Sequence record: NC_041936.1
Length of the DNA stretch: 64,000 bases
Direction: 5' to 3' (one strand)
Source of the DNA: Escherichia phage ECD7
A program made the translations under genes and the position numbers. Below, piece after piece: positions 5,746 through 63,017 of the stretch; the stretch's first letter is position 1; every line of letters begins with the position of its first letter. Under the pieces are notes generated by a model. The model worked only from the letters and a program-made list of their open reading frames with translations, searched no databases and had not been told where the DNA came from.

Positions 5746-5768
5746 GAAAAAGCGGGATTTCTCCCGCT
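5746..5768 (-). terminator. terminator-like hairpin plus U5 ending 13 nt upstream of the nrdD start codon
   Basis: AGCGGGAGAAATCCCGCT + TTTTT then CATAGGTGATACA-ATG on the minus strand. Confidence 0.45.
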
Positions 5769-8478: not shown

Positions 8479-8952
8479 CTATCTTAATCTTTGTATGAAT
8501 TGTTTCTTATACTTCTTCGTGATCTCTTCTCGTGTATCAGCGTCGCAGTAATCGAAACCTTCTGCGTCCATAATATCAACCATCTCCGCGCGTGTCAAGC
8601 GTGAAAATCGTTTTACTTTATCAACAGCATATTGAGGATGTAAATGATTGTTGGTGTAGTCTCCTTTGATGTAATTAACATAGTTTGTAGCCCAAACAAC
8701 GAAATCAGCACCTAAAGCACCAACACCAAACCGTTTAAAGTCTCCGGTCAACGATCCTTCTAGGCGGTTGCAACACGAATGAAGCAATCCCCTTACGCGG
8801 CCTTGCCCTTTACCATCTAGATCGTGGTCGTGGTCAAGATGGTTTTTGCTCATATCCTCAAAAAGTGGCAATTGACAAAGGGGGCAAATGCCCCCCTGTT
8901 TTTCGAATAGTTCTTGTTTGTACTCTTTAGCACTCTTAGCAGTCAGTAACAT
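8479..8952 (-). CDS. 49: recombination endonuclease VII (Holliday junction resolvase)
   Basis: NHLDHDHDLDG...GRVRGLLHSCCNRLEG matches the T4 gp49 Zn-binding/catalytic region; MLLTAK start parallels T4 MLLTGK. Confidence 0.85.
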   Translation of the reverse strand: MLLTAKSAKEYKQELFEKQGGICPLCQLPLFEDMSKNHLDHDHDLDGKGQGRVRGLLHSCCNRLEGSLTGDFKRFGVGALGADFVVWATNYVNYIKGDYTNNHLHPQYAVDKVKRFSRLTRAEMVDIMDAEGFDYCDADTREEITKKYKKQFIQRLR

Positions 8953-21674: not shown

Positions 21675-21702
21675 TTTAATACTCCTTTGTTTCGATGGGG
21701 GT

Positions 21703-21731
21703 ATATTACTACCCCCGTTTTGTTGTGTCAA
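21703..21731 (-). promoter_or_regulatory. early promoter TTGACA-17-TAATAT with stem-loop GGGGGTA/TACCCCC around the -10
   Basis: Upstream of the 21674 start; SD AAGGAG. Confidence 0.5.
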
Positions 21732-24028: not shown

Positions 24029-24061
24029 AACGGGGAGAGATCCTTAGATTGTCTCCCCGTT
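24029..24061 (-). promoter_or_regulatory. GC-rich 10-bp stem-loop (AACGGGGAGA..TCTCCCCGTT) without U-tract, between the endolysin and the next gene
   Basis: Perfect inverted repeat with 13-nt loop; shares the CGGGGAGA arm with hairpins near nrdD and gene 19. Confidence 0.4.
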
Positions 24062-29518: not shown

Positions 29519-29549
29519 CTTGATTCTCCTTTCGTTTGTTTGTGGGGGT

Positions 29550-29578
29550 ATCTTACTACCCCCGTTTCATGTTGTCAA
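29550..29578 (-). promoter_or_regulatory. early promoter TTGACA-17-TAAGAT with stem-loop GGGGGTA/TACCCCC
   Basis: Between the 29585 stop and the small ORF start at 29518. Confidence 0.5.
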
Positions 29579-40091: not shown

Positions 40092-43000
40092 TTAAAGCGC
40101 CTAGTGTAACTAGCTTGACAATAGAAAAATTGTCTGCTAATCAGGCGTATATCACATGGGATGACGTAGGCGAAAACTTCTTTTATTTTGTGGAGTTAGC
40201 CGAAACCAGAACGCGAGACGGGGAGATCATCCCCGTCGATGAGTTAAGCTGGGTAAACCTGGGATATACTGCCGATCAAAACTGGTTTGAGGATAAAAAC
40301 CTTTTTCCAGAATATTATTACAAGTTTCGTGTAGCAGTAGCCGCAGAAGGATTTGAACAAAGTAAATGGGTTGAGACAGAAGAGTTTCAGACATTTAAAA
40401 CAAACGCATATAATTTTTCTATGATGCGAGAGTTCAACCTTGCAAACGAGTTTATAAAGGAAAAATTTACATACGATAATCGAGAGTATGTCAAGTTTAA
40501 TACTGACCTGATTCAAGCATCATTGATGAAGGAAGATTTTGTCTTTAGTCCTGAATATGCAAACATGACAAATATCTCAAACTACATTGTAGTTGATGAG
40601 AACTTTCATGAAATACAGGATCACATAGAAAAAGTTTGTACTGATATAAACCGCACAATGTTAGCGGAAATGAACGGTGTTTTGTACCTTTTCGAACGGT
40701 TCCAGCCGATCGTGAAAGTGTCAAATGATAAAGGTCAATCATGGAAAGCATACAAGGCTTTTAATGATCGTGTAGGCAATCCGGTTTCCCGCACATGCGT
40801 TTATCAGTCTAAAACCACTACTTACGTTTTAGGATATGACCGAATCTTTTACGGACGACAAGCTAGCGATACTCGATGGAGCGCGGACGATGTTCGATTT
40901 AGTGATGATACGATCACTTTTGCAAAGGTTGGTGACGAGAACGATTTAGGCTTTGATGTTGAGGTCTTTGGTGTATTTTCCAGATTAACAGGTGATACCA
41001 CAAAATACGCCGAAGCTATGGCGTGCAGTGATGACTATTTGTGGGTTGGTGCTAAAGATGTTATTCGCCGGATTCGTCTTAAGAATACTCCTGTTGATAC
41101 CGTACAGGGTTCGCCTACGTTTGGAGAAAAAATATTCGATCCTGATGTTATACGAGTAACAGGAAATGATAAAGCTGTCATTCAGAAAATGGATGTGATC
41201 GACGGTAAATTGCTTGTATTTGTTACGGGTGAAGTTAAACAGCGTTATCAAGATCCAACTAAACCAGAAAACGTTGTTCCGTCAGATGATGCGGGTGTAT
41301 ACTTAATAGGGAGTGATGGTCTGTCTTTTCAGAGAGTATTTGGCAACACTCCGCAGGAAAGGGAATATATTCAGCACGGGTTCAGTAATATGTCAACCAA
41401 TGGTGATGAGGTGTTCATAAGCCATTATAATCATCACTTCGAAAGCATTTTACCTGATCCAGAAACTGCCGCAAAATATGAATTAGGCGAAGCTGTAAAA
41501 TATTCTCAGGAGCCAACTTATCTAACTGATAAGAAAATACATCAAACTACTTTCAGAGCAAGTTATGATGATTTGCGTATTTGGGAGTTAGGACCGCAAG
41601 CGTATTATAACGAGGCTGATTATACATGGATGCGTCGAAACGGTGTCCGTGTGTGGATCACAAATGATAATCGCCCGTTGGTTGTTTATCCAGAGGTTGT
41701 CTATACTCAAGAAGTTGATACATCTGGCATTCTTGACCAAAATAGGGTTAACCGAGAAGTTTATGATAAAGGGACCGTGACCTGTTATCTTAACAATGTT
41801 AAATTTGAAGGATTCAAACAATATGCATCCGGTGTAATGTTCCATAAAAACACAGGAGAGATCATTGGATTCTATCAATTTAATTATCGTGTTCGTGATC
41901 AGGTTGGTGTATATTGGAAACCTACAAATGTAGCATTTGTTGCTGAATTGCAAAATCAGGTTAGAGAGGTTCCCTGGGTTCCGGTTCACTACGATCGAGA
42001 GCAAGATCCAGATTTGCGGCCTTTACTGAATAAGATGACCCCTGATAGCTTTTTACTTGAGAACGAAAATTTCAGAAAATTCTCTGAATATTATCTGCAA
42101 TTCTTAAGCGATGGTTCAGGAACATATTATAATAAACTAAAAAATCTGATTAAAAACAAATATCCACGCGAGAAAGATGCATATGAGTATCTTTGGTCAG
42201 AGATGAACAAACGAAACATCTATGCAGATAAAAACAAGCGAGATGCGGTAGTAAGATTCTTTGAATCCCGCAAATCAGATTTTTATTCCACTAAGGGCGT
42301 GGAGGCTTCTTATAAGTTCTTGTTTAAGTTACTTTATAATGAAGATGTGGAAATTGAGGTTGAATCACAAGCCGGACTAGAGTATGATATTGTTGTTAGT
42401 TCAACGAACATTGACGAGGATATCGTAGGTCGCACGATTTATACTCCAACCGGACGGGCTAACGTGACGTATCTTGAAAGGGAATATGAAGGTGGTCGCC
42501 TACGCTGGCGAGTAACCATTCATAACCTGATCGGGCGGTTCGAAGAAGGTCAAGTGATCAAATCAGAGAAAACAGCGTTTGAAGGGATGATCCTTGTTGG
42601 TGTACGTGGTAAAGAGTTGTTGAGTAGTTCAATCGACTATATCAACCGCTCACGAAGCCAATACACCATGAAGATTAAAAGTGCATTGCCAGTTTCGCGC
42701 TATGCAAATGATGTAATGCGATTCGTTCATCCTGTCGGCTTTGGGTTTATCGGTGTTACCCTGCTTACAATGTTCATTAACAGCGGGTTAAGCATGAAGC
42801 ACACCGAGACTATAATTCAATCTCTGAAAAATTATAAGTTTGACAGCGGATTGCCTAGCGTGTATCCTGATCGGGTGGCAGACCTTGACGTTGACGGAAA
42901 CATTAAGAAAGACCCGCTTACCGGAAAAGCATTATATTTGACTTCACCTTTAATTGGTGAAGAATTTCCGGTTCCTCCTGAATATGATCAGGAGAACAGC

Positions 43001-55479: not shown

Positions 55480-58793
<3,314 letters not shown>

Positions 58794-58824
58794 CGATAAT
58801 GCATAAAAAGATGAGGAAATTCTA

Positions 58825-60825
58825 ATGACTCTATTATCACCGGGTTTCGAAACGAAAGAAACTACTCTCTCCACTACCATTGTGCAATCTGCGACTGGTC
58901 GCGCGGCACTGGTAGGTAAATTCCAATGGGGTCCAGCTTTCCAGATTATTCAAGTAACTAATGAAGTTGAATTAGTTAATAAATTTGGTCAGCCGGATAA
59001 TAACACCGCAGACTATTTCATGAGCGGGGCTAACTTCCTCCAGTACGGTAATGATCTGCGTGTTGTTCGTGTATTGAATAAAGAAAAAGCGAAAAACGCA
59101 ACTGCCCTAGCTGGTAACGTCGAGTTTGAAATCACAAACGAAGGTTCAAACTATGAAGTAGGCGATACCATCAAGATTAAACATAACCGTCAAGATATTG
59201 AAACGGCAGGTAAAGTAACTAAAGTTGATGGTGATGGTAAAGTTAAGGGTGTATTTATCCCAACTGGTAAAATTATCGCTCACGCTAAAGCAATCGGTGT
59301 ATATCCAGAACTTGATGGCGATTGGACGGCAGAGTTCACTTCTTCGTCGGGTAACGGTAGTGCGGCGCTGTCAGTAACGAAAATTGTTACTGATTCCGGT
59401 CTTCTGTTAACGGATCTGGAAACTTCCCGCGCCAATATCACAAATCAAACTTTCTTGACTAAACTCAAGAAGTATGATATGCCAGCGGTAAGCGCGATCT
59501 ATGCTGGTGAGATTGGCAACTCGCTGGAAGTTGAAATTCTGGCGCGTAGTGCGTTTAAGAACACAGCACCGGAACTGACCATGTATCCTTATGGTGGCGA
59601 GCGCACCGCAGCACGCAACCTGATTCCATATGCACCGCAGAATGATAATCAATATGCATTTATTGTTCGTCGCGATGGTGTTGTGGTAGAATCCTATGTA
59701 CTGTCTACTCTGAAAGGGGATAAAGACGTATATGGCAATTCTATCTACATGGACGACTTCTTTGGTCGTGGTTCTAGCCAGTACATCTATGCAACCGCTC
59801 AAGGGTGGGTAGATGGTTTCAGTGGTATTATCTCTCTTGCCGGTGGTGTTTCTGCTAACGAAGCAACGACTGGTGGAGTTGGTGCTGATCCGTTCATCGG
59901 TGCGATGATGCAAGGTTGGGATCTGTTTGCTGAACGAGAATCTATTCACGTAAACCTGTTGATCGCTGGTGCATGTGCTGGCGAAGGCGATGCGTTCTCT
60001 ACCGTACAGAAACATGCTGTTTCCATCGGTGATGAGCGTCAGGATTGCTTAGTAATGGTTTCTCCGCCACGTAGCACTGTTGTTAATATTCCGGTGACTA
60101 CTGCAATTGATAACCTGATTGCATGGCGCGAAGGTTCAGGAAACTATAATGAAAACAACATGAACATTAATACCACTTACGCGGTTATTGATGGTAACTA
60201 CAAATATCAGTATGACAAATACAACGACGTAAACCGTTGGGTTCCGTTGGCTGCTGATATTGCTGGTTTGTGCGCTCGTACTGATGCTGTATCCCAGCCG
60301 TGGATGAGTCCGGCAGGTTATAACCGTGGTCAGATCATGAACGTGGTTAAACTGGCAATTGAGCCTCGCAAGGCGCACCGCGATCGTCTGTATCAGGCTG
60401 CAATTAACCCGGTGATCGGTGCTGGTGGTGAAGGGTTTATCCTGATGGGTGATAAAACCGCTACGACTGTTCCTAGCCCGTTTGACCGCATTAACGTTCG
60501 TCGTCTGTTTAACATGCTGAAAAAGAATATCGGTGATTCAAGCAAATACAAACTGTTTGAAAACAACGATAACTTTACTCGCGCTTCCTTCCGTATGGAG
60601 GTTTCGCAATATCTCAGCACGATTCGCTCTCTGGGTGGCATTTATGACTTCCGAGTACAATGCGACACCACGAATAACACGCCGGATGTAATTGATCGTA
60701 ACGAATTTGTTGCTAGTATGTTCATCAAACCAGCAAAATCGATCAACTATATCATGCTCAATTTCACTGCTGTTGCAACTGGTTCTGATTTTGACGAAAT
60801 TATCGGTCCAGTTAACCAGGCATAA
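58825..60825 (+). CDS. 18: tail sheath protein gp18
   Basis: 666 aa (T4 gp18 is about 659 aa); TATAAATA late promoter upstream. Confidence 0.95.
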   Translation: MTLLSPGFETKETTLSTTIVQSATGRAALVGKFQWGPAFQIIQVTNEVELVNKFGQPDNNTADYFMSGANFLQYGNDLRVVRVLNKEKAKNATALAGNVEFEITNEGSNYEVGDTIKIKHNRQDIETAGKVTKVDGDGKVKGVFIPTGKIIAHAKAIGVYPELDGDWTAEFTSSSGNGSAALSVTKIVTDSGLLLTDLETSRANITNQTFLTKLKKYDMPAVSAIYAGEIGNSLEVEILARSAFKNTAPELTMYPYGGERTAARNLIPYAPQNDNQYAFIVRRDGVVVESYVLSTLKGDKDVYGNSIYMDDFFGRGSSQYIYATAQGWVDGFSGIISLAGGVSANEATTGGVGADPFIGAMMQGWDLFAERESIHVNLLIAGACAGEGDAFSTVQKHAVSIGDERQDCLVMVSPPRSTVVNIPVTTAIDNLIAWREGSGNYNENNMNINTTYAVIDGNYKYQYDKYNDVNRWVPLAADIAGLCARTDAVSQPWMSPAGYNRGQIMNVVKLAIEPRKAHRDRLYQAAINPVIGAGGEGFILMGDKTATTVPSPFDRINVRRLFNMLKKNIGDSSKYKLFENNDNFTRASFRMEVSQYLSTIRSLGGIYDFRVQCDTTNNTPDVIDRNEFVASMFIKPAKSINYIMLNFTAVATGSDFDEIIGPVNQA

Positions 60826-60858
60826 TCAGTAAATTAGCATAGATTAAAAGTTAAATCA

Positions 60859-60879
60859 AGCGGGGAGAAAATCCCCGCT
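60859..60879 (+). promoter_or_regulatory. RNA stem-loop AGCGGGGA-gaaaa-TCCCCGCT between genes 18 and 19
   Basis: 8-bp GC-rich stem, weak U-tract; likely transcript-stability or attenuator element. Confidence 0.4.
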
Positions 60880-60898
60880 CTATTAAGGAATATCAATT

Positions 60899-61393
60899 AT
60901 GGCACTCGATTTGAATGATATTACACGCGGTTTCGAGTCTGGCGATTTTGCTCGTCCCAACCTGTTTGAAGTTGAGATCCCGTATCTGGGGCAAAACTTT
61001 AAGCTGATGTGTAAGGCTGCGACTGTCCCGGCTGCTACCGTAGAAAAAATTGCTATAGGCTATCAAAACCGTAAAATTAACATCGCTGGCGACCGTGTAT
61101 ACGACGACTGGACCATCACTGTATTCAACGATGACGCACACAAGATCCGTGATGCTATCGTTGCATGGAGCGATCAGACACACGGCACTGGTTCGGCGAT
61201 CACGGGTGCAACTCCTGCACAATATAAGAAACAAGCTATTGTTCGTCAACTTAACCGTAACACCGAATCAACTAGCGAAAAAACATTGTACGGTATTTTC
61301 CCGACCAACGTTGGTGAAGTAACCCTCGATTGGGAACAAAACAACGAAGTTGAAACGTTTGAAGTTACTTTTGCTATCGATTGGGTAGAATAA
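60899..61393 (+). CDS. 19: tail tube protein gp19
   Basis: 164 aa (T4 gp19 is about 163 aa); flanked by GC hairpins. Confidence 0.9.
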   Translation: MALDLNDITRGFESGDFARPNLFEVEIPYLGQNFKLMCKAATVPAATVEKIAIGYQNRKINIAGDRVYDDWTITVFNDDAHKIRDAIVAWSDQTHGTGSAITGATPAQYKKQAIVRQLNRNTESTSEKTLYGIFPTNVGEVTLDWEQNNEVETFEVTFAIDWVE

Positions 61394-61405
61394 ATATATT
61401 ATCAT

Positions 61406-61424
61406 GCGGGGAGAAGTTCCCCGC
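61406..61424 (+). promoter_or_regulatory. RNA stem-loop GCGGGGA-gaagt-TCCCCGC between genes 19 and 20
   Basis: Near-identical stem to the 60859 hairpin; followed by CTAATTTCTCCC. Confidence 0.4.
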
Positions 61425-61451
61425 CTAATTTCTCCCAATTCGAGGTGAATA

Positions 61452-63017
61452 ATGTTTAGTAGATTAAAAATGCTTGCGCGTTGGGCTGATTTTGACAACG
61501 ACAAATACGAAGAACAAATTAAAGATAAAGCAGAGTCTATCGCCGCACCTAAAAACAATGATGGTGCTACGGAAGTAGAAATTAATGATAATTTACCTGC
61601 TAGCGCGTGGAACTCTCTTACCCAGCAATTTTACAGCACCGACCAGAAAATCAGCACAACTAAGCAATTAGTTAACACATATCGCGGTTTGATGAATAAC
61701 CATGAAGTCGAAAACGCTGTACAAAATATCGTTAACGATGCGATTGTATTTGAAGAAGGTCATGAAGTTGTTTCATTAAATCTTGAGGCGACTGGCTTTA
61801 GTGAATCTGTAAAAGAGCGCATTCATGAAGAATTTAAAGATCTTTTAAACACTATCCAGTTTGATAGGCGCGGTCAGGATATGTTCCGTCGCTGGTATGT
61901 CGATTCGCGTATTTTCTTCCATAAAATAATCGGCAAAAATCCAAAAGATGGTATCGTAGAATTACGCCAGCTTGACCCACGTAATCTTGAATATGTTCGC
62001 GAGATCATTACAGAAGACACACCGGAAGGTAAAATTTATAAAGCAACGAAAGAATATTTCATTTACACTGTAGGCAATAGTTCTTATTGCGCGGGTGGTC
62101 AAGTATTCTCTCCTAATAGTCGCGTTAAAATCCCGCGTAGTGCTATTACATACGCTCACAGCGGCTTAATGGATTGCGATGATAAATATATCATTGGTTA
62201 TTTGCATCGGGCTGTTAAGCCAGCAAACCAGCTTAAATTGTTGGAAGACGCAATGGTCGTTTATCGTATCACGCGTGCACCGGAACGCCGAGTGTTCTTT
62301 ATTGATACCGGAAACATGAACAACCGCAAGGCTGCACAGCACATGAACTCAGTGGCACAGTCTTTTAAAAACCGCGTTGTTTATGATGCATCGACTGGTA
62401 AACTTAAAAACCAGCAAGCAAATCTATCAATGACAGAGGACTACTGGTTACAGCGTCGAGATGGTAAAGCAATCACCGACGTTACTACTTTACCAGGTGC
62501 ATCCGGTATGAGTGATATCGATGATATTCGCTACTTTAACCGTAAATTGTATGAAGCGTTACGCGTTCCATTGTCACGCAGCAATCTCTCCGATGCTAAT
62601 ATGGTGATCGGTGGTGATGGTTCAGAAATTACTCGCGATGAGTTGGAATTTTCGAAATTCATTAGAACTCTGCAATCACAGTTTTCGGAAGTATTGCGCG
62701 ATCCTCTGAAATATAATCTGATTCTCAAAAATGTAATTACGGAAGATGATTGGGATCGTGAAATAAATAATATCAAGGTGGTTTTCCATCGGGACTCTTA
62801 CTATACAGAAGTTAAAGACGCGGAAATTTTAGAACGTCGAATCGGTCTAATCGAACGTATTACACCTTACATTGGTAAGTATTTCTCTAACCAGACAGTG
62901 ATGCGTGACATTCTGAAATATACCGATGACCAGATGGACACCGAGAAGAAACAGATCGAAGAAGAAGCGAACGATCCGCGCTTTAAACAAACTCCCGATG
63001 AAATAGAGGATTTTTAA
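61452..63017 (+). CDS. 20: portal vertex protein gp20
   Basis: 521 aa (T4 gp20 is about 524 aa); synteny. Confidence 0.95.
   Translation: MFSRLKMLARWADFDNDKYEEQIKDKAESIAAPKNNDGATEVEINDNLPASAWNSLTQQFYSTDQKISTTKQLVNTYRGLMNNHEVENAVQNIVNDAIVFEEGHEVVSLNLEATGFSESVKERIHEEFKDLLNTIQFDRRGQDMFRRWYVDSRIFFHKIIGKNPKDGIVELRQLDPRNLEYVREIITEDTPEGKIYKATKEYFIYTVGNSSYCAGGQVFSPNSRVKIPRSAITYAHSGLMDCDDKYIIGYLHRAVKPANQLKLLEDAMVVYRITRAPERRVFFIDTGNMNNRKAAQHMNSVAQSFKNRVVYDASTGKLKNQQANLSMTEDYWLQRRDGKAITDVTTLPGASGMSDIDDIRYFNRKLYEALRVPLSRSNLSDANMVIGGDGSEITRDELEFSKFIRTLQSQFSEVLRDPLKYNLILKNVITEDDWDREINNIKVVFHRDSYYTEVKDAEILERRIGLIERITPYIGKYFSNQTVMRDILKYTDDQMDTEKKQIEEEANDPRFKQTPDEIEDF

Follow-up and report, generated by a model that had tools for sequence, protein, structure and literature searches.

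Intercistronic stabilizing hairpins set differential expression within operons, as the REP elements of malEFG and the hairpins of the puf operon do. Hairpins with UUCG or GNRA tetraloops were reportedly first noted in the intercistronic regions of phage T4, by Tuerk et al. in 1988. In RB49 and Phi1, stem-loops made of a G-run, a loop and a C-run form the terminator half of early-promoter cassettes called PeSLs, and one PeSL stem-loop cut downstream lacZ expression approximately as much as rrnB T1 (Arbiol et al. 2010). For RB49, TransTerm predicted a terminator named '19-->20' at 89423-89441 (+), with a 7-bp stem and a score of 100 (Nolan et al. 2006, Virol J 3:30, Additional file 6).

Here we analysed a stretch of 64,000 nucleotides of Escherichia phage ECD7 (NC_041936.1), hereafter the window, in which similar hairpins flank gene 19. 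The hairpins are already known: they are of the terminator/attenuator type that T4-type phages ordinarily carry between genes, and records of this genus mark them as putative terminators. Their conservation across genera and their sense-strand bias are not described in the terminator predictions for RB49 or GenBank MK327932.

Two hairpins flank the tail tube gene of a Krischvirus

In a sequence comparison, positions 60000-62500 had 99.5% identity to Escherichia phage Phi1 and 99.2% to RB49. By this measure the source of the window is a Krischvirus, an RB49/Phi1-like T4-type coliphage of the Straboviridae, and we took the names of genes 18, 19 and 20 from the 99.5% identity to Phi1 (Table 1). 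Of the genes in the 17-23 block, gene 19 alone has hairpins on both sides; a classical terminator follows gene 23. The gene at the start of this block, gene 17 (terminase large subunit), is one continuous ORF of 938 amino acids (55974-58790, +), compared with 608 amino acids in Phi1. A segment of approximately 990 bp (56465-57456) has no counterpart in Phi1, a LAGLIDADG_3 domain is found at amino acids 364-422, and the Terminase_6N match starts only at amino acid 496. The extra segment looks like an intein with a homing endonuclease inside the terminase.

Table 1 Genes, hairpins and late-promoter boxes discussed in the text (window coordinates)
Feature	Position	Strand	Description
Gene 18, tail sheath	58825..60825	+	Phi1 match
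Gene 19, tail tube	60899..61393	+	Phi1 match; hairpin on each side
Gene 20, portal protein	61452..63017	+	Phi1 match
Hairpin 1, gene 18/19 gap	60859..60879	+	AGCGGGGA-GAAAA-TCCCCGCT; 8-bp stem, 5-nt loop
Hairpin 2, gene 19/20 gap	61406..61424	+	GCGGGGA-GAAGT-TCCCCGC; 7-bp stem (8 bp counting a G-U pair)
Late promoter box TATAAATA	58786..58793	+	Upstream of gene 18, overlaps the gene 17 stop
AATAAATA	61389..61396	+	Overlaps the gene 19 stop, 9 nt upstream of hairpin 2
Family member inside the gene 7 CDS	40217..40237	+	GACGGGGA-GATCA-TCCCCGTC; perfect 8-bp stem; z = -3.8
Family member, ORF057/nrdD gap	5751..5768	- (coding strand)	AGCGGGA-GAAA-UCCCGCU, then UUUUUC; z = -4.9
Longer relative upstream of vs.8	24029..24061	- (coding strand)	10-bp stem, 13-nt loop; -21 kcal/mol, z = -3.6

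An earlier note on this DNA had pointed out both hairpins, and the coordinates and sequences that it gave match the letters of the window exactly. Each hairpin lies on the coding strand downstream of a stop codon, the placement of an intrinsic terminator. Hairpin 1 starts 33 nt past the gene 18 stop and ends 19 nt ahead of the gene 19 ATG, and hairpin 2 lies 12 nt past the gene 19 stop and 27 nt ahead of the gene 20 ATG. With six G-C pairs per stem and loops of five nucleotides, both fall within the range for the GC-rich stem-loop of an intrinsic terminator (stem of 5-14 bp, loop of 3-8 nt). The predicted folding energy of hairpin 1 is -15.2 kcal/mol alone and -16.8 kcal/mol in its intergenic context (z = -3.2), and that of hairpin 2 in its intergenic context is -16.2 kcal/mol, with a modest z of -1.9. 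As the note had also said, neither is followed by a long U-tract. On the + strand hairpin 1 runs into CUAUUAAGG, which contains no U-tract, and it fails the + strand terminator scan. Hairpin 2 runs into CUAAUUUCU, which is U-rich with no uninterrupted U-run, and it passes a lax terminator scan and TransTerm.

The 5' arm and loop of hairpin 2 (GGGAGAAGUU, 61409-61418) can also pair with AAUUUCUCCC downstream (61427-61436), forming 10 bp that include one G-U pair. This alternative fold can form in the sense RNA only and is mutually exclusive with hairpin 2. The two are near-isoenergetic (-13.2 kcal/mol compared with -13.7 kcal/mol for hairpin 2), and the equilibrium probability of the alternative is approximately 4%. 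By eye, the 19/20 gaps of T4 and Mosigvirus offer no obvious counterpart. An Rfam scan of 58700-61700 returned only a chance-level match to rli48 (E = 0.88, 22 bits against a gathering score of 100).

Prior annotation covers both elements. The RB49 terminator at 89423-89441 is exactly hairpin 2 (window coordinate + 28017), and the same TransTerm table has no '18-->19' entry, meaning that hairpin 1 was not called (Nolan et al. 2006). The table also lists 'nrdD<--ORF057c', the gap that contains the 5751-5768 hairpin. In phage G2248 (MK327932), both hairpins are annotated as 'putative transcriptional terminator'. These RB49 and G2248 features are the same elements as ours and are automated predictions. 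A text search of the literature with the hairpin sequences gave no match, a literature search for T4 3'-end mapping or long-read transcriptomes and for Krischvirus RNA 3' ends found nothing relevant, and a review of T4 late transcription does not discuss termination.

The hairpins belong to a genome-wide stock of stem-loops

We searched the window for CGGGGA-N3-9-TCCCCG and found three copies against 0.01 expected. The third copy (40219-40235) lies within the coding sequence of gene 7, which encodes a baseplate protein; in Phi1 the stem of this hairpin is kept and the loop is different. It may be a coincidence or an internal attenuator. The two related sites named in the earlier note, at 5751-5768 and 24029-24061, are real hairpins on the minus strand. 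The arms of the first are one G shorter each than those of the gene 19 hairpins, and the stem arms of the second are ACGGGGAGA...TCTCCCCGU, also given as ACGGGGAGA / UCUCCCCGU.

To extend the search to a whole genome, we assembled full Phi1 from four annotated pieces (L058 + L002 + L057 + L059), assigned hairpin locations by the Phi1 annotation and obtained expected counts from shuffles. The motif GCGGGG-N3-11-CCCCGC occurs six times against 0.03 expected, which is well above chance, and all six copies are intergenic: 18/19, 19/20, 36/37, 54/ORF182 (convergent genes), rnlA/pseT.3 and nrdA/ORF233. The copy at 36/37 shares its 8-bp stem with hairpin 1 and runs into UUUUC. The hairpin core GGGG..CCCC is found 40 times against 2.7 expected, nearly always between genes, and the opposite polarity, CCCC..GGGG, five times against 2.1 expected. 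These excesses place the gene 19 hairpins in a genome-wide stock of G-run/loop/C-run hairpins. A scan of IMG/VR for GCGGGGAGAANNTCCCCGC was uninformative: it returned 32 loci, one of them from Krischvirus, which by a rough estimate is about chance for a 17-base pattern.

The stock includes the PeSL stem-loops, which have the same type of stem as the gene 19 hairpins (Arbiol et al. 2010; Comeau et al. 2014). Both share the G-run/loop/C-run form, and two Phi1 PeSLs carry literally the same stem, GCGGGGA-GAAA-TCCCCGC, as their promoter spacer. One, in the nrdA/ORF233 gap, reads TTGAC-GCGGGGAGAAATCCCCGC-TATAAT, and a similar PeSL is located in the gene 47/ORF038 gap. The stem-loop of PeSL211/210, the G4 hairpin tested by Arbiol et al. 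(2010), is followed by UAUAAU and has no U-tract. Around either gene 19 hairpin, however, we found no sigma-70 -35/-10 pair at proper spacing; the nearest + strand match, TTGCTA-18-TATATT (61371-61400, 9/12), lies wholly upstream of hairpin 2. PeSLs sit in hyperplastic regions by early ORFans, whereas the gene 19 hairpins flank the conserved late core genes 18, 19 and 20. We therefore rejected the identification of these hairpins as PeSLs.

The window contains further hairpins. A near-identical pair, GGGGGTAT(A/C)TTACTACCCCC, is present at 21697-21716 and 29544-29563 with similar flanks, in the early minus-strand region; in Phi1 names these are the gaps ORF095/096 and ORF124/125. The pair is probably related to PeSLs. 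In the 5' part of gene 49 (endonuclease VII, minus strand), a G5/C5 hairpin at 8879-8897 has an adjacent TTGACA, which resembles how a hairpin and a promoter are arranged inside T4 gene 49.

Position and structure are conserved across T4-type genera

We read the 18/19 and 19/20 gaps in 12 genera (T4, Krischvirus and ten others), 24 gaps in total. Hairpins at least as stable as -9.6 kcal/mol are present in all 24. Stem sequences vary by genus, and structure and position are kept. The sense-strand RNA is more stable than its complement in 20 of the 24 hairpins (Wilcoxon p = 6e-4), and the sense-strand loop is of the GNRA or UUCG type in 14 of the 24. In T4, UGGGGA-GAAA-UCCCCA is found six nucleotides past the gene 19 stop, and a Mosigvirus has the same hairpin; in Citrobacter phage Ursula, gene 19 is immediately followed by GGCGGA-GAAA-UCCGCC. 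Constant position with changing stems, the bias towards the sense strand and the GNRA/UUCG loops indicate that the gene 19-flanking hairpins function in late mRNA across T4-type phages, not in DNA alone.

In the window, as in T4, an intercistronic hairpin follows gene 19, and the core GGGGA-GAA-UCCCC is shared. The hairpins of the window differ in their loops, which have five nucleotides (GAAAA and GAAGU) and are not canonical UUCG or GNRA tetraloops. Such an extra-stable tetraloop is present in the close relative G2248 (GAAA), and T4, Mosigvirus, Ursula and AS-yj have one at the corresponding site; in most genera, extra-stable loops are on the sense strand. The promoters differ as well: T4 has late promoters of its own for genes 19 and 20 beside the hairpins, whereas Krischvirus lacks one for gene 19.

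The strand bias bears on a different view of hairpin 1, in which it would be a terminator for the opposite strand that stops antisense ('anti-late') transcription into gene 18. GenBank MN894885 annotates hairpin 1 as a minus-strand terminator, and on that strand the stem is followed by UUGAUUUAACUUUU, passes the terminator scan and folds with z = -3.5. Yet the T-richness of this tail is weak, there is neither a gene on the minus strand nor a supported promoter in the vicinity, and promoter-like matches in the gene 19 region are below shuffle expectation. Given also that the hairpins are more stable on the sense strand across genera, we consider an antisense terminator very improbable.

Loops drift and stems are kept within Krischvirus

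The 18/19 gap, including hairpin 1, is identical in 41 Krischvirus records, and the variants of hairpin 1 in the genus change the loop only. The loop is GAAA in G2248. At the IMG/VR locus L003, hairpin 1 carries the GAAGT loop of hairpin 2, making both hairpins the same 19-mer. In JSE (L053 733-753), hairpin 1 reads AGCGGGGA-TTTTC-TCCCCGCT, the exact reverse complement of the hairpin in the window, with the 5-nt loop inverted; sense-strand loop identity at hairpin 1 is therefore not essential. Drift among GAAAA, GAAA, GAAGT and UUUUC loops on preserved stems argues against a protein that reads the loop sequence. The earlier note had raised a dispersed repeat recognized by a protein. As a description, dispersed repeat holds, with six intergenic sites in Phi1; the recognition part is unsupported, and the loops vary freely among close relatives.

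Protein recognition could take a more specific form, with the GGAG at the stem-loop junction serving as a processing site for the endoribonuclease RegB, or the hairpin serving as an operator for another RNA-binding protein. GGAG is present in both hairpins and this genome encodes regB. RegB targets are unstructured GGAG motifs in an intergenic or Shine-Dalgarno context of early mRNA. A GGAG within a secondary structure is reported to be protected, and late transcripts are all reported to be resistant to RegB (Uzan and Miller 2010). In these hairpins, the GG and the A of GGAG are base-paired, and we rejected a RegB target on the published specificity. The loop differences between near-identical phages, inversion included, tell against RegB and an operator alike, and we regard this whole class of explanation as having almost no likelihood.

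The inverted loop of JSE shows that the palindromes undergo inversion at the DNA level, and conversion possibly occurs as well. The 18/19 gap has also received insertions. In phiS (L055 303-902), a 200-aa ORF resembling an HNH endonuclease is located between gene 18 and hairpin 1, and this insert brings its own G5 hairpin after gene 18. HNH genes occupy the same gap in Ursula (L016 1-371) and in L005, where the gene lies upstream of gene 19. Free-standing homing endonuclease genes appear to land in this gap repeatedly.

Such events raise the question of whether the hairpins could be DNA-level homologous or palindromic linkers, similar to PeSL stem-loops, that promote recombination, gene conversion or mobile-gene insertion around gene 19. 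The identical 19-mers of L003, the exact loop inversion in JSE, the HNH endonuclease gene next to the hairpin in phiS, Ursula and L005, and the use of the same stem as spacer in two sigma-70 PeSL promoters of Phi1 all speak for such linkers. But recombination between direct repeats around gene 19 would delete this essential gene, the position of the hairpins is conserved even in genera whose two copies are unrelated in sequence, the greater stability of the sense strand is a pointer to RNA, and properly spaced sigma-70 boxes are missing around both hairpins. We consider such linkers distinctly unlikely.

Late promoters around the hairpins

The box at 58786 is the sole exact TATAAATA upstream of genes 18-20 in the window, and it corresponds to the predicted RB49 late promoter at 86777-86819. 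The RB49 predictions contain no late promoter between 86777 and 92358 (Nolan et al. 2006). Gene 19 therefore lacks its own late promoter in the window. Since gene 19 is essential and its product abundant, hairpin 1 must be read through by most polymerases.

The AATAAATA at 61389-61396 is a possible weak late promoter for gene 20. In RB49, both A and T are tolerated at position -13, and a late promoter was predicted in the 19/20 gap of 44RR, where the box is AATAAATA (Nolan et al. 2006). The candidate lacks statistical support, as AATAAATA is not enriched in the window (5 found, 7.9 expected). If active, it would place hairpin 2 also at the 5' end of the gene 20 message, and the role of hairpin 2 would then not be purely 3'.

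This possibility leads to an alternative in which hairpin 2, and ancestrally hairpin 1 too, is part of a cassette of late promoter plus hairpin, with a 5' hairpin that protects the gene 20 message from 5'-end-dependent decay. Transcripts from AATAAATA would start near 61402, with the hairpin 4 nt from the 5' end, an arrangement that is compatible with a 3' role. Besides the tolerance at -13 and the 44RR prediction, two observations favour it. In Dhakavirus MX01 and L004, a perfect TATAAATA is followed after 9 nt by a UUCG hairpin in the same place, with a promoter-to-hairpin spacer that resembles that of the window. In addition, a 39-nt direct repeat (77% identity) covers box and hairpin in both gaps; its upstream 20 nt match at 11/20 and are AT-rich, so we do not take it as proof of duplication. 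Against the cassette stand the lack of AATAAATA enrichment, the absence of an RB49 late promoter here from Nolan's model, and the box in the 18/19 gap, ATTAAAAG, which differs from TATAAATA at three positions in addition to the tolerated first one. Moreover, T4, Mosigvirus and Ursula have the promoter on the downstream side of the hairpin, and in Earwig, leB and 44RR transcription is predicted to start within the 5' arm. With the promoter position varying in this way, a 5' hairpin is not the conserved feature, and we give the cassette a low probability.

A related view is prompted by a (N)ATAAATA late-promoter box that directly adjoins the 3' arm of the 18/19 hairpin in nine of the 12 genera. 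The hairpins and boxes may be composite terminator-promoter modules, the late-gene counterpart of PeSLs, in which the box doubles as the weak-hybrid tract and the stems are points of conversion or insertion. The AT-rich box would let a hairpin without a U-tract terminate upstream transcripts, and new transcripts would start just beyond it. L003, JSE and the HNH genes of phiS, Ursula and L005 provide hints of conversion or insertion points. We regard these modules as an unlikely, speculative extension.

A proposed role for the hairpins in late mRNA

On balance, we think it reasonably probable that the two hairpins act as stem-loops of late mRNA, hairpin 2 as a leaky terminator and 3' protector and hairpin 1 as a decay barrier or mild attenuator. 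A late polycistronic transcript would start at the gene 18 late promoter and run through genes 18, 19 and 20, and both hairpins would be drawn from the standard G-run/loop/C-run family with which the phage marks the 3' side of genes.

The T4 virion contains approximately 12 copies of the portal protein and approximately 138 copies each of sheath and tube. A portal needed in far fewer copies, together with the U-rich tail of hairpin 2, fits a leaky terminator, which in this case would be factor-independent and would also protect the 3' end. Termination at hairpin 2 would make messages that end after genes 18-19 outnumber those that reach the portal gene, lowering gene 20 expression. For hairpin 1, read-through and the absence of a U-tract make a decay barrier or weak attenuator likelier than efficient termination. 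As a barrier to 3'-to-5' exonucleases, it would give defined, protected ends to the gene 18 segment and to a processed gene 19 segment. The proposed working is that of the malEFG REP elements and puf hairpins, where a stem after the upstream cistron blocks 3' exonucleases and the upstream parts of the message live longer than those downstream; those hairpins and the ones flanking gene 19 are unrelated in sequence.

The earlier note had proposed partial terminators or 3' stabilizers that tune gene 19 relative to genes 18 and 20. Part of this proposal now has support, and all of it agrees with everything that we computed. Terminators or stabilizers are suggested by the sense-strand sites after stop codons, the conserved position in 12 genera, the stability bias, the earlier predictions and the reporter result of Arbiol et al. 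(2010). What the analysis shows is the structures, their excess over chance, their bias towards intergenic sites and the sense strand, and a constant position with varying sequence; termination, stabilization and any effect on protein ratios we infer.

Beyond annotation, the finding is of little importance. It presents genes 18, 19 and 20 of Krischvirus as a single late transcription unit in which two hairpins serve as punctuation, and the hairpins flanking the tail tube gene as a conserved feature of T4-type phages at the RNA level. It provides a concrete handle on how adjacent genes yield sheath, tube and portal in very different amounts. For phage engineering, it means that insertions into the 18/19 and 19/20 gaps are not to be regarded as neutral.
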